A stretch of 64,000 bases of DNA, from IMG/VR virus record IMGVR_UViG_3300036768_001066; one strand, written 5' to 3'. Below, piece by piece: positions 5,182 through 6,190 of the stretch (position 1 is the stretch's first letter; every line of letters starts with the position of its first letter). Position numbers and translations under genes: made by a program. This DNA comes from a virus (lineage: Duplodnaviria; Heunggongvirae; Uroviricota; Caudoviricetes). A model generated the notes under the pieces. That model made no database searches and was not told where the DNA came from. It was given only the letters and a program-made list of their open reading frames with translations.

Positions 5182-5258
5182 GGTCTATGGGGCTGCAGGG
5201 TGTGGCCGCCCGCCTGTCACGCGGGAGATTCAGGTCGGTTCGATCCCGACATAGACCG
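5182..5258 (+). tRNA. tRNA-Asp (anticodon GTC)
   Basis: Hand-folded cloverleaf: acceptor ggtctat/atagacc, anticodon stem cccgc/gcggg with loop cTGTCac, T arm gtcgg-ttcgatc-ccgac, discriminator G. The 8-nt variable region is slightly unusual. Confidence 0.65.
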
Positions 5259-5383
5259 CAACACTCGAGGCCGATGGCCGACGGAGGCAAGGCACTGTAG
5301 GGAATACGGTCCGAGGTGGGAGTCCTCGATACTGGCGCAGTAGGAAATGACTGTTGTCCGAATCCCGCCAGAGAGTGTTAATT

Positions 5384-5452
5384 GGTGGCGCCTGATGGCA
5401 AGGTCCGGGACTGTCTCTCTCGGGATAGCGAGTTCGATCCCCGTCGCTACCG
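5384..5452 (+). tRNA. degenerate tRNA-like element (pseudo-tRNA, Asp-like GTC loop)
   Basis: Acceptor ggtggcg/cgctacc (one G-U), T arm gcgag-ttcgatc-cccgt with an A-C mismatch, anticodon-like hairpin cggga-ctgtctc-tctcg with pyrimidine at position 37, truncated D region; only 69 nt. Confidence 0.3.
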
Positions 5453-5592
5453 CCGAGTTTGTTCTTTGATATTGGTAGTGTAAAAGTGGGGCCTGAGGTA
5501 AGGCGTGCCGAGATTAGACAACTCGCGCATAGGACTATCCTCTTAGTGGAGCCACCGGGTCCTTGCTTTGCTGGATGTGCCGCGACCATTTT

Positions 5593-5666
5593 GGGGCCTT
5601 AGCTTAGATGGCTAAAGCGTTTGCCTGGCAGGCAAGAGATCACGGGTTCGAGTCCCATAGGCTCCA
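5593..5666 (+). tRNA. tRNA-Ala (anticodon GGC)
   Basis: Acceptor ggggcct/aggctcc with a G3:U70 pair (Ala identity element), D stem gctt/aagc, anticodon stem tttgc/gcaag with loop cTGGCag, T loop ttcgagt, discriminator A. Confidence 0.65.
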
Positions 5667-5689
5667 CATATTACAAGAACGACTAAAAT

Positions 5690-5768
5690 GCACCTGTGGC
5701 TGAGAGGCCCAAAGCAACGGTCTGCAAAACCGTACATAAGACCGCCGGTTCGAATCCGGCCAGGTGCT
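5690..5768 (+). tRNA. tRNA-like, best fold gives anticodon GCA (Cys) with an atypical 10-nt variable region
   Basis: Acceptor gcacctg/caggtgc perfect, anticodon stem acggt/accgt with loop cTGCAaa, T arm gccgg-ttcgaat-ccggc perfect. 10 unpaired nt (acataagacc) between the anticodon and T arms is non-canonical. Confidence 0.5.
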
Positions 5769-5779
5769 CAAGAAGGCAT

Positions 5780-5863
5780 GCTCCTGTCGCCTATTTGGTA
5801 GGGCACCAGACTTTCAATCTGGAGGCTACAAGCCGTGAGCGGGTTCGATCCCCGTCGGGAGTA
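5780..5863 (+). tRNA. tRNA with anticodon TTC (Glu) carrying a 16-nt class-II-like variable arm
   Basis: Acceptor gctcctg/cgggagt (two G-U), D stem gcct/gggc, anticodon stem ccaga/tctgg with loop cTTTCaa, variable arm aggctacaagccgtga (ggc-tacaa-gcc mini-hairpin), T arm gcggg-ttcgatc-cccgt, discriminator A. Same acceptor and T arm as the CTC copy downstream. Confidence 0.55.
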
Positions 5864-5911
5864 CTACAAAAACGCTATATTAGCGCGCCGCGGTGAAAGA
5901 CGCAGATAAAT

Positions 5912-5985
5912 GGTCCTGTGGTGGAATTGGTTAACACGCCGCCCTCTCAAGGCGGAGATTGCGGGTTCGATCCCCGTCGGGACTA
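5912..5985 (+). tRNA. tRNA-Glu (anticodon CTC)
   Basis: Acceptor ggtcctg/cgggact (two G-U), anticodon stem ccgcc/ggcgg with loop cTCTCaa, 5-nt variable loop, T arm gcggg-ttcgatc-cccgt. Confidence 0.65.
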
Positions 5986-6116
5986 CTAAACGAGAGCGCG
6001 CGCTGGAAAGTGTTGGACAAAGAGGGATCTGATTGTCCGGGAAACCCGTCTGGCTGCCCATCAGGACCGAGTGTTCGGATGATTCCTTCCACCTCTCCAA
6101 GGCTCTCGTTTTTCAT

Positions 6117-6190
6117 GGGGCGGTGGTCCAACTGGCTGGTCACCTGCCTTTGCAAGCAGGCTTATGAGGGTTCGAGTCCCTTCTGCTCCA
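6117..6190 (+). tRNA. tRNA-Ala-like (TGC-containing) with an 8-nt anticodon loop
   Basis: Acceptor ggggcgg/ctgctcc including G3:U70, anticodon stem cctgc/gcagg (identical to E. coli tRNA-Ala UGC) enclosing CTTTGCAA (8 nt rather than 7), T arm gaggg-ttcgagt-ccctt, discriminator A. Confidence 0.5.

Follow-up and report, generated by a model that had tools for sequence, protein, structure and literature searches.

A 64,000-nucleotide (nt) stretch of the Caudoviricetes record IMGVR_UViG_3300036768_001066, hereafter the window, carries a dense array of tRNA genes between positions 5182 and 6190, several of which depart from the standard tRNA shape. Comparisons with related phages and across viral and cellular genomes make it probable that two layers are superimposed in this array, namely a conserved variable-region architecture of phage tRNAs that would still be charged with their cognate amino acids, and a recent, strain-specific decay. 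The architecture of its tRNA-Glu(UUC), which bears a class-II-like extra arm, and a miniature RNase P RNA-like gene located downstream make this locus more interesting than an ordinary phage tRNA cluster.

Across the whole 64-kb window, ARAGORN called six tRNA genes, all within 5182-6191 and none elsewhere: Asp(gtc) at 5182-5259, Ala(ggc) at 5593-5667, Cys(gca) at 5690-5769, Glu(ttc) at 5780-5864, Glu(ctc) at 5912-5986, and an undetermined tRNA at 6117-6191, the isotype of which was uncallable because of a 4-base anticodon (ttgc). Five of these scored above the 29-bit gathering score of the Rfam tRNA model RF00005 (Glu(CUC) 65.4, Cys 61.4, Ala(GGC) 59.5, Glu(UUC) 55.2, and the Ala-like tRNA 42.9 bits). 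An original prediction, made from the sequence alone, had named six tRNA genes here, and all were recovered in place by ARAGORN and the Rfam tRNA model. A seventh, tRNA-like element was delineated alongside them, so that the array comprises:

5182..5258 (+), tRNA-Asp(GUC), 77 nt, with a variable loop of 8 nt (AGAUUCAG) and G73 (ARAGORN and parse)
5384..5452 (+), Asp-like tRNA-like RNA, 69 nt, with a shortened D arm and the anticodon loop CUGUCUC (Rfam tRNA model 18 bits; no ARAGORN call)
5593..5666 (+), tRNA-Ala(GGC), with G3.U70 and a strain-specific C50.A64 T-stem mismatch (ARAGORN, Rfam, and parse)
5690..5768 (+), tRNA-Cys(GCA), with U73 and an unpaired variable loop of 10 nt (ACAUAAGACC) (ARAGORN, Rfam, and parse)
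5780..5863 (+), tRNA-Glu(UUC), with A73 and an extra arm at 5823-5838 (ARAGORN, Rfam, and parse)
5912..5985 (+), tRNA-Glu(CUC), canonical (Rfam 65.4 bits)
6117..6190 (+), orthologue of tRNA-Ala(UGC) with one extra C, an 8-nt anticodon loop CUUUGCAA (6148-6155), G3.U70, and A73 (ARAGORN, Rfam, and parse)

When parsed arm by arm, all seven elements had an acceptor stem of 7 base pairs (bp) and an anticodon stem of 5 bp, and the T stem was fully paired in five of them (4/5 pairs in Ala(GGC) and in the 5384-5452 element). The anticodon loop had 7 nt in every array gene except 6117-6190, and identity elements were intact throughout: both Ala tRNAs have G3.U70, A73 is found in these and in both Glu tRNAs, and position 73 is U in Cys and G in Asp. 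Rfam alignments placed variable-region inserts of 13 nt in Glu(UUC) and 6 nt in Cys, and a single inserted base in the anticodon loop of 6117-6190; neither scan restored a 7-nt loop in the latter, so that its 8-nt loop, together with G3.U70, stood as first described. The variable region of Glu(UUC), AGGCUACAAGCCGUGA (5823-5838), spans 16 nt with a 4-bp stem (GGCU/AGCC) closing a 3-nt loop (ACA). This class-II-like arm had been part of the original prediction, as had the 10-nt unpaired variable region of Cys, and both were borne out, the former by the Rfam insert, the stem, and covariation in a relative (L003, see below), the latter by the Rfam insert and the parse. The two Glu tRNAs had also been reported to share acceptor and T arm; they do have the same T arm, but pair 2:71 of the acceptor stem is not the same in the two. 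The 8-nt variable loop of Asp(GUC) is an additional non-standard feature that had been overlooked. The top clan hit for this tRNA was tRNA-Sec at 28.8 bits (tRNA-Sec gathering score, 47), its score against the tRNA model being lower and below the 29-bit cut-off; like the 5384-5452 element, it scores below gathering, yet parses as a full cloverleaf and is conserved in relatives. An allo-tRNA or tRNA-Sec type was excluded for all array members by their 7/5 acceptor/T helix, which is not of the 8/4, 9/3, or 13-bp kind.

The evidence for a conserved architecture comes first from three related phages found by protein look-ups, each represented by one or two contigs (L002+L012, L093+L095, and L003), the neighbouring genes of which are 95-97%, 52-87%, and 36-68% identical to those of the window, respectively. 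The extra arm of Glu(UUC) occurs in all four genomes of this lineage, and a canonical Glu(UUC) in two of the four: L012 and L093 encode an additional canonical 75-nt copy, while L003 and the window have the extra-arm copy alone, which indicates that the extra-arm copy is the one retained and the canonical copy the one lost. The stem-loop reads GGCU-ACA-AGCC in the window and L012, GGCU-AUA-AGCC in L093, and UCCU-UUA-AGGA in L003, with three of the four pairs altered on both strands among these genomes, and the anticodon stem covaries too. The class-II-like arm of Glu(UUC) is under selection. In acceptor stem, T-stem pairs, A73, and UUC anticodon, the extra-arm tRNA matches the canonical paralogue of L012, from which the L012 extra-arm copy differs at one base of the T loop. 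Variable loops of the other odd tRNAs are enlarged to differing extents, with 8, 8, 8, and 7 nt for Asp (77-78 nt by ARAGORN) in the window, L002, L093, and L003, and 10, 10, 6, and 5 nt for Cys in the window, L012, L093, and L003. The element at 5384-5452 had been taken for a degenerate Asp copy, but it is kept in L002 and L093 with acceptor pair 5:68 swapped from G-C to C-G, a compensatory change; its T stem, with a mismatch in the window, is fully paired (5/5) in the relatives. A pyrimidine replaces the usual purine at position 37 in this element and in two Asp(GUC)-type tRNAs of L003 (3411-3484 and 3638-3713, both on the minus strand), the loops being CUGUCUA and CUGUCUC.

Beyond this lineage, IMG/VR was scanned with a pattern (ACTTTCAAT, 16-30 nt, then GGGTTCGA) the spacing of which forces a variable region of at least 10 nt. 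This returned 100 matches, and in the 80 loci examined, ARAGORN called at least 48 tRNA-Glu(ttc) of 82-92 nt, all of them in loci that hold 3-27 tRNAs, many of these on contigs of 200-480 kb. Across the 51 unique long-arm Glu(UUC) sequences collected, variable regions of 11-22 nt form stems of mostly 3-8 bp with unrelated sequences, and 47 of the 51 fold better than their own shuffles (p ≤ 0.05), with a mean folding energy of -4.75 kcal/mol against -0.74 kcal/mol for the shuffles. Most have A73 (43/51) and G1.U72 or A1-U72 as first acceptor pair (39/51), and many have a D arm typical of tRNA-Glu. A stricter pattern was run over the cellular genomes of 185,579 species (596 Gb); no more than 10 of its 28 matches there were tRNAs, compared to 48 in the examined IMG/VR loci; most of the 10 lie within dense tRNA arrays, and one is on a 410,106-bp contig that is listed as viral in IMG/VR, i.e., a misbinned phage. 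The published 462-kb huge phage LR756500 carries an extra-arm Glu tRNA, and none was found in cultured phages. In the same viral loci, tRNAs of at least 80 nt (ARAGORN calls alone) were seen for Asn (10/30), Cys (9/16), Met (11/34), and Asp (5/28), and also for Ile, Val, Trp, His, Gln, Lys, Thr, Pro, and Ala. Asp tRNAs of 85-91 nt from IMG/VR phages combine the D arm of the window Asp with a full variable-region hairpin, and Cys tRNAs of 81-82 nt have an A-rich loop (GAUAUAAACACC) similar to the ACAUAAGACC of the window. Judging from these likenesses, Glu(UUC), Asp, and Cys of the window are members of recurrent phage tRNA families with enlarged variable regions, and such families are common in the tRNA arrays of uncultured phages and rare in cellular genomes. 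The extra-arm class-I tRNA is apparently a widespread, phage-associated, and previously undescribed architecture; a full-text literature search turned up no description of extra-arm class-I phage tRNAs, although absence there is no proof of novelty.

Three further tRNAs were noted during these comparisons. An IMG/VR array that also holds a miniature RNase P RNA (L097) includes a 91-nt tRNA-Asn(GUU) with a 6-bp variable-region hairpin (7579-7669, minus strand) and a 73-nt tRNA-Tyr without the long arm usual for bacterial Tyr tRNAs (5393-5465, minus strand). A chromosome contig of a Dehalococcoidia metagenome-assembled genome (L216, 2477-2524 region) carries a 92-nt tRNA that combines a Ser/Leu-like body with G73, an encoded CCA, and a UUC anticodon; no other tRNA lies in its 8-kb locus, and it may be a cellular class-II tRNA with a Glu anticodon.

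Intermediate variable loops of 8-10 nt are rare in cells. Like bacterial class II tRNAs (Leu, Ser, Tyr, Sec), Glu(UUC) has a stem-loop of at least 10 nt between anticodon and T arms and a 7/5 acceptor/T geometry, but it differs from them in its UUC anticodon, the acceptor stem of a canonical tRNA-Glu, and a short arm (4 bp; 3-8 bp in relatives); it thus has the variable region of a class II tRNA without the anticodon or identity of Leu, Ser, Tyr, or Sec. The Cys variable region, although 10 nt long, is stemless, and the enlarged loops of Cys and Asp (8-10 nt) are unpaired, again unlike class II. Phage isoacceptors structurally unlike those of the host that keep their decoding identity are also found among phage tRNAs that evade host tRNA nucleases by altered sequence, such as T5 tRNA-Lys (against PARIS) and mycobacteriophage anticodon-loop variants; in those cases the changes are in the anticodon stem-loop, whereas here they are on the variable-arm side, and no matching defence system was identified. 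Nematode nev-tRNAs and bacterial allo-tRNAs (Mukai et al. 2017, PMC5389517; review PMC7609411) likewise join a long arm to a non-Leu/Ser/Tyr anticodon. Allo-tRNAs, however, have an 8/4 or 9/3 acceptor/T geometry and Ser identity (PMC5389517; PMC7609411), while the phage tRNAs are 7/5, mostly A73, and tRNA-Glu-like, with no sign of codon reassignment. Phage tRNA arrays appear to break routinely the rule that restricts long variable arms to Leu, Ser, Tyr, and Sec tRNAs. This offers a testable handle on why phages carry their own tRNAs, be it escape from tRNA-targeting immunity, folding robustness, or an exclusive partnership with a synthetase or processing enzyme, and extra-arm tRNAs, if still correctly charged, would be natural scaffolds for orthogonal tRNA engineering.

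We propose that the array provides decoders for the acidic codons heavily used by the phage (GAC 754 and GAG 673 of 15,173 codons in sampled window genes), along with Ala and Cys. The odd tRNAs would keep being charged with their cognate amino acids, as suggested by the Glu(UUC) body, which resembles that of the canonical L012 paralogue, by the U73 and GCA anticodon kept in Cys, and by the G73 and GUC anticodon kept in Asp. The enlarged variable-side surface most likely sets phage tRNAs apart from host tRNAs, and our best guess is that tRNAs marked in this way could escape host tRNA-directed nucleases or toxins; as a second possibility, the extra arm may be a handle for a phage enzyme. A GluRS has been reported from huge phages (PMC7162821). 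Several points weigh against this reading. The close relatives represent three lineages only, and the window covers 64 kb of a genome of ~374 kb, such that canonical copies may sit elsewhere. No nuclease, synthetase, tRNA-repair, RNase P protein, or other partner gene was found in the window when 48 open reading frames (ORFs) were compared to Pfam or PHROGs. The identity elements of E. coli GluRS include the absence of nucleotide 47 and an augmented D helix, and since GluRS reads this missing nucleotide, a 16-nt arm could impair Glu charging. The long tRNAs of isotypes other than Glu are ARAGORN calls that may include false positives. Finally, the tRNA with the 8-nt loop is otherwise intact (42.9 bits, every stem paired) and may have some residual function.

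If charging did change, Glu(UUC) could be aminoacylated by LeuRS, SerRS, or TyrRS and thereby mistranslate or reassign GAA, as proposed for nematode nev-tRNAs. Both its class-II shape and A73, the main E. coli LeuRS determinant, would fit such a switch, as would the loss of the E. coli-type GluRS element noted above. Yet the acceptor stem and T-stem pairs are those of the canonical L012 Glu(UUC) with a T loop one base off, many of the 51 long-arm relatives have a typical tRNA-Glu D arm, and GAA is in normal use (230 of 903 Glu codons in the window). When compared to orthologues, which come from phages carrying the same tRNA, GAA aligns with Glu at 29 and with Asp at 6 of 46 positions, similar to GAG (99 and 18 of 144), and we consider an identity switch quite improbable. 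A decoy function, in which the odd tRNAs would be non-decoding and absorb host anticodon nucleases, is in line with the known phage counter-measures to tRNA-targeting defences, and with the canonical and odd copies of Asp, Cys, and Glu(UUC) found side by side in relatives. It is a poor fit to the window, the cluster of which has no copy of Asp, Cys, or Glu(UUC) besides the odd one; the odd Glu(UUC) is also the sole phage copy in L003, the canonical one being the copy that was lost. Intact identity elements and anticodon loops further suggest decoding, and the set Asp/Cys/Glu/Ala matches no nuclease target set, making decoys unlikely. That the odd features are sequencing or assembly errors, or that all odd tRNAs are dead, might be suspected from the sub-gathering score of Asp(GUC) 5182, the 18 bits of the 5384 element, and a region that is clearly gathering indels in this genome. 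However, Logan contigs from run SRR11727984, the sample of which may be the same as that of the window, match the window exactly over the whole cluster (L001 corresponding to window 4891-5957 and L011 to the window from 5929 onward), and because these contigs were assembled independently, the features are not assembler artefacts. In the relative with a 97%-identical neighbour gene, Asp, Cys, Glu(UUC), and Glu(CUC) do not differ from the window genes at a single base, the odd features persist with compensatory changes in relatives with neighbour proteins ~50-75% identical, and dozens of unrelated viral contigs show the same architectures. This explanation can already be regarded as largely refuted where Glu, Cys, and Asp are concerned, and as a whole it is extremely unlikely.

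The conserved architecture is one layer of the array; the other, decay, is where the 8-nt anticodon loop belongs. In all three orthologues (L003, L093, and L012), Ala(UGC) has a 7-nt loop, UUUGCAA. The anticodon arm is CCUGC-UUUGCAA-GCAGG in L003 and L093, to which the window is identical save for one extra C, and CCUCG-UUUGCAA-CGAGA in L012. The inserted C is position 6148, or 6147 within the CC run, and the window tRNA also bears a derived G6.U67 pair. Immediately downstream lies a further casualty:

6191..6850 (+), pseudogene of a conserved protein of 246-250 amino acids (aa), the gene being intact in L012, L093, and L003

A 45-nt deletion took its ribosome-binding site and start codon, and relative to L012 it has additional deletions of 23, 87, and 12 nt as well as five 1-nt indels. 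Decay private to the window genome extends to the spacers named sp1 and sp2 (a 25-nt deletion in the former, loss of the 3′ half in the latter) and to new T-stem mismatches in Ala(GGC), which scores 59.5 bits here and 65 bits in L012, and in the Asp-like element; in the same segment four tRNAs and a ParB-like ORF were lost, in addition to the pseudogenized adjacent gene. On this comparative evidence, the 8-nt loop is a single C insertion private to this genome, in a decaying segment, and we read the tRNA as a pseudogene in the making, or one that at most causes weak GCAA frameshifting by accident, rather than a recoding device.

The recoding suggested in the original prediction would make this tRNA a working GCAA quadruplet decoder, used for programmed +1 recoding or for the rescue of frameshifted genes. 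Its CU-UUGC-AA loop shares the geometry of known and engineered +1 suppressors and could in principle read GCAA, although nothing suggests that it is used in this way. All stems are paired, at 42.9 bits in Rfam, and AlaRS ignores the anticodon, so Ala charging should follow from G3.U70 and A73 regardless of it. Two frameshifted genes are also present in the window. A DUF7487 gene with repeated KYGV-type motifs is split by a frameshift (19982-20752 and 20373-21131, plus strand), and its frame (19982-21131) is restored by +1 at TAT CAA AAA G, an A5 run near 20435, not at GCAA; it is the second gene of the window to be disrupted by an indel, but may alternatively reflect a homopolymer error or contain a slippage site. 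Rescue of the adjacent pseudogene by the Ala tRNA was ruled out, as this gene is without a start codon and its frame would need shifts of both signs, the sole +1 site being an A run and not GCAA. Nor is in-frame GCAA avoided: 68 of 229 GCA codons in long window ORFs are followed by A (29.7%), compared to 32.4% A at that position overall (15,173 codons). With the insertion missing from 3/3 orthologues and neither frameshifted gene in need of +1 at GCAA, a quadruplet decoder is highly improbable. The +1 suppressors sufA6, sufB2, sufD, and sufJ and engineered quadruplet decoders (PMC8481270) also have an extra anticodon-loop nucleotide in an otherwise normal tRNA, and they too arise by spontaneous single-base insertion. 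The window tRNA shares their 8-nt loop with a 4-base anticodon (CU-UUGC-AA), but shows neither maintenance by selection nor cognate sites: its insertion is private and unselected-looking, lies in a decaying locus, and has no cognate frameshifted target that we could find. The 8-nt loop is thus a recoding look-alike in one genome, exposed as a fresh lesion by orthologue comparison.

Gene order places these losses within a shared array. In L002+L012 and L093, it runs from Asp (77-78 nt) through sp1, the Asp-like tRNA, sp2, a 72-nt Cys, and a canonical Asp to Ala(UGC), canonical Glu(UUC), Ala(GGC), and the ParB-like ORF, followed by Cys (76-80 nt), extra-arm Glu(UUC), Glu(CUC), sp3, and a final Ala(UGC). 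The window is without the four-tRNA segment from Cys (72 nt) to canonical Glu(UUC) and without the ParB-like ORF. The three spacers correspond to the following features:

5260..5383 (+), remnant of a structured RNA, sp1 (~150 nt in relatives), with closing stem AACACUC/GAGUGUU (RNAalifold)
5453..5592 (+), remnant of a tRNA-shaped RNA, sp2 (comparison with relatives)
5988..6111 (+), structured RNA sp3, with a 10-bp closing stem AAACGAGAGC/GCUCUCGUUU (conserved in L012 and L093)

Covariation suggests that these spacers are conserved structured RNAs, two of the three being truncated in this genome. For sp1, RNAalifold on four sequences predicted 39 pairs, 9 of them compensatory, including a T-arm-like hairpin; the 25-nt deletion, seen in the window only, removed one hairpin and half of the T-arm-like one. 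In relatives, sp2 combines an acceptor stem of 7 bp and a T arm with a branched insert of ~70 nt, and its 3′ half is lost or replaced in the window, the junction being the site at which the four tRNAs of the relatives were lost (the ParB-like ORF was lost further downstream, between Ala(GGC) and Cys). For sp3, 35 pairs were predicted, 2 of them compensatory. The tRNA-like pieces that had been noticed in the spacers are therefore present, but they are not random debris: they belong to truncated sp1 and sp2, which are intact in relatives. Rfam gave no family match for the spacers, including to YrlA, tmRNA, SRP RNA, and ribozymes. A lone hit to YrlA/bacterial Y RNA (RF02553) was rejected as spurious (22.6 bits, across the Cys T arm and the Glu D arm), and so was a minus-strand ORF under the spacers (5230-5589), which has no family match and for which conserved RNA is the better explanation. 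In other phage tRNA arrays, sub-threshold full-length YrlA matches were observed at L230 4250-4368 (37.5 bits) and L228 708-847 (34.3 bits), with E-values of ~1e-4 to 1e-3. The tRNA cluster of phage T4, with the stable RNAs named species 1 and 2, is likewise a tight tRNA array with interspersed RNAs, and in both cases these are ~120-150 nt with tRNA-like 3′ modules and without assigned functions. There is however no sequence relationship between the two, and the window spacer RNAs are known from covariation only, two of the three in truncated form.

Further downstream, 2.3 kb from the array and between genes, we identified a candidate ribozyme gene preceded by a promoter-like sequence:

8427..8455 (+), sigma-70-like promoter match TTGACA-17-TATATT, 11/12 (consensus match only), located directly 5′ to the RNase P RNA-like gene
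8465..8696 (+), miniature RNase P RNA-like gene, 232 nt (Rfam RNaseP_arch, helix checks, and RNAalifold)

The latter matched RNaseP_arch (RF00373) over its full length at 46.2 bits (whole-window E = 6.8e-10), below the gathering score of 84 bits, and full-length matches were also obtained for L095 (51.4 bits), L230 (35.1 bits), and L228 (26.4 bits), with E-values, including that of the window, of 6.8e-10 to 8.7e-4. It includes CR-I GAGGAAAUUCG, CR-V ACAGAAACGCGAUUA, the motif UAGUCAAAUG, helices P1-P5, and a P4 pseudoknot with a bulged U, which is flanked by CR-I (GAGGAAA...) and CR-V (ACAGAA...). At the place of the specificity domain (CR-II/CR-III), there are ~65 nt between the P5 strands, in which a GUGG/CCAC helix and the motif GUAAGUGAAAG are left. 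L012 and L095 have conserved copies of the gene in which an A-U pair of P4 is replaced by G-C; P4 is AAU(U)CGCG/CGCGAUU in the window and covaries to AGU(U)CGCG/CGCGGCU in relatives. P1, P2, P3, P5, and P15 also covary: the strands of P1-P3 pair completely in four lineages despite unrelated sequences, as do those of P1 in five further contigs. RNAalifold on eight sequences predicted 29 pairs, P4 included, of which 19 were compensatory; because MAFFT misaligned P1 and P2 in the divergent members, pairing in these two helices was verified directly.

The exact P4 motif led to seven IMG/VR contigs, in five of which the RNA lies inside an array of 11-24 tRNAs, and in one beside a tmRNA gene. Relatives of ~190-240 nt are found at L012 3884-4115, L095 1909-2142, L097 3228-3451 (minus strand), and L098 288-528 (minus strand), and in L227-L231 and L232, and include unannotated homologues in the 735-kb phage LR756501/LR756503 (L232 being LR756501 near 181.4 kb) and in LR745206. 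A tmRNA gene (97.4 bits) adjoins the miniature RNase P RNA at L227 1261-1644. With minimal RNase P RNAs (Pyrobaculum type T; RF00373), the phage version shares the catalytic core (P1-P5, P15, CR-I, CR-V, and the bulged U of P4), a strongly reduced specificity domain, and a size of ~190-240 nt, but it differs by its location in or next to tRNA arrays, its own P4 (UUCGCG/CGCGRYU), scores below the Rfam threshold, and the lack of a known protein partner. The phage RNA probably matures the 5′ ends of array transcripts. If confirmed, an RNase P RNA of ~190-240 nt would be among the smallest natural versions and, to our knowledge, the first viral one; no mention of a phage RNase P RNA was found in a full-text literature search, absence there being no proof of novelty. 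More tentatively, many uncultured and especially huge phages might run a semi-autonomous tRNA system, in which a parallel set of arm-marked class-I decoders (Glu, Asn, Cys, Met, Asp, Ile, Val, etc.) would be transcribed from arrays that also encode a mini RNase P ribozyme of their own, and in which the extra arm would insulate the tRNAs from host tRNA-directed defences or restrict them to phage enzymes, a possibility that we consider rather doubtful at this stage.

The genomic context is that of such a phage. Based on exact protein matches, the window is a section of a 373,759-bp JGI contig, and its gene products include a baseplate wedge protein, PhoH, an SF1 helicase, an S1-domain protein, CoaE, and very large virion-type proteins. 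A 1162-aa window protein has 25-35% identity (tblastn) to proteins of LR756500-LR756503, Lak megaphages, Sphingomonas phage PAU, and Flavobacteriia jumbo phages. The array thus belongs to a huge phage related to the PAU, Lak, and LR7565xx phages, and given this kinship the host is probably a member of the Bacteroidota. Comparison of the cluster to 50,697 deposited phage records (megablast and blastn) returned generic tRNA matches only and no close relative, and scans of IMG/VR with the 243-aa neighbour, the exact 8-nt-loop sequence, a strict Glu pattern, and an alignment of the 246-aa neighbour gave no match. A metagenome scan with an alignment of the 243-aa neighbour yielded 80 loci, and ARAGORN on 60 of these found a tRNA cluster in one, which was unrelated, indicating that synteny with this neighbour gene is not conserved. 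The array itself is bounded upstream by a feature that is also found ahead of it in L002, L003, and L093:

5148..5177 (+), terminator-like hairpin and U run, closing the upstream genes, with the array beginning 5 nt 3′ of the hairpin

Breaks between Logan contigs were observed inside tRNA genes, within tRNA-Glu(CUC) for L001/L011 (window 5929-5957) and within a tRNA-Asp for L002/L012. Repeated T-arm and acceptor sequences appear to fragment k-mer assemblies of the array, and for this reason short-read assemblies may contain too few such tRNA arrays. One more distant relative has a gene of the Thg1 family, i.e., tRNA-His guanylyltransferase-like 3′-5′ polymerases, near the conserved 245-aa gene at a locus without tRNA genes (L094 3098-3970, minus strand). 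Within the window, a 365-aa protein carries S1 RNA-binding domains (16334-17431, plus strand), and ART-PolyVal ADP-ribosyltransferase domains occur in two proteins, at 24857-25792 and 31288-32211 (both plus strand).

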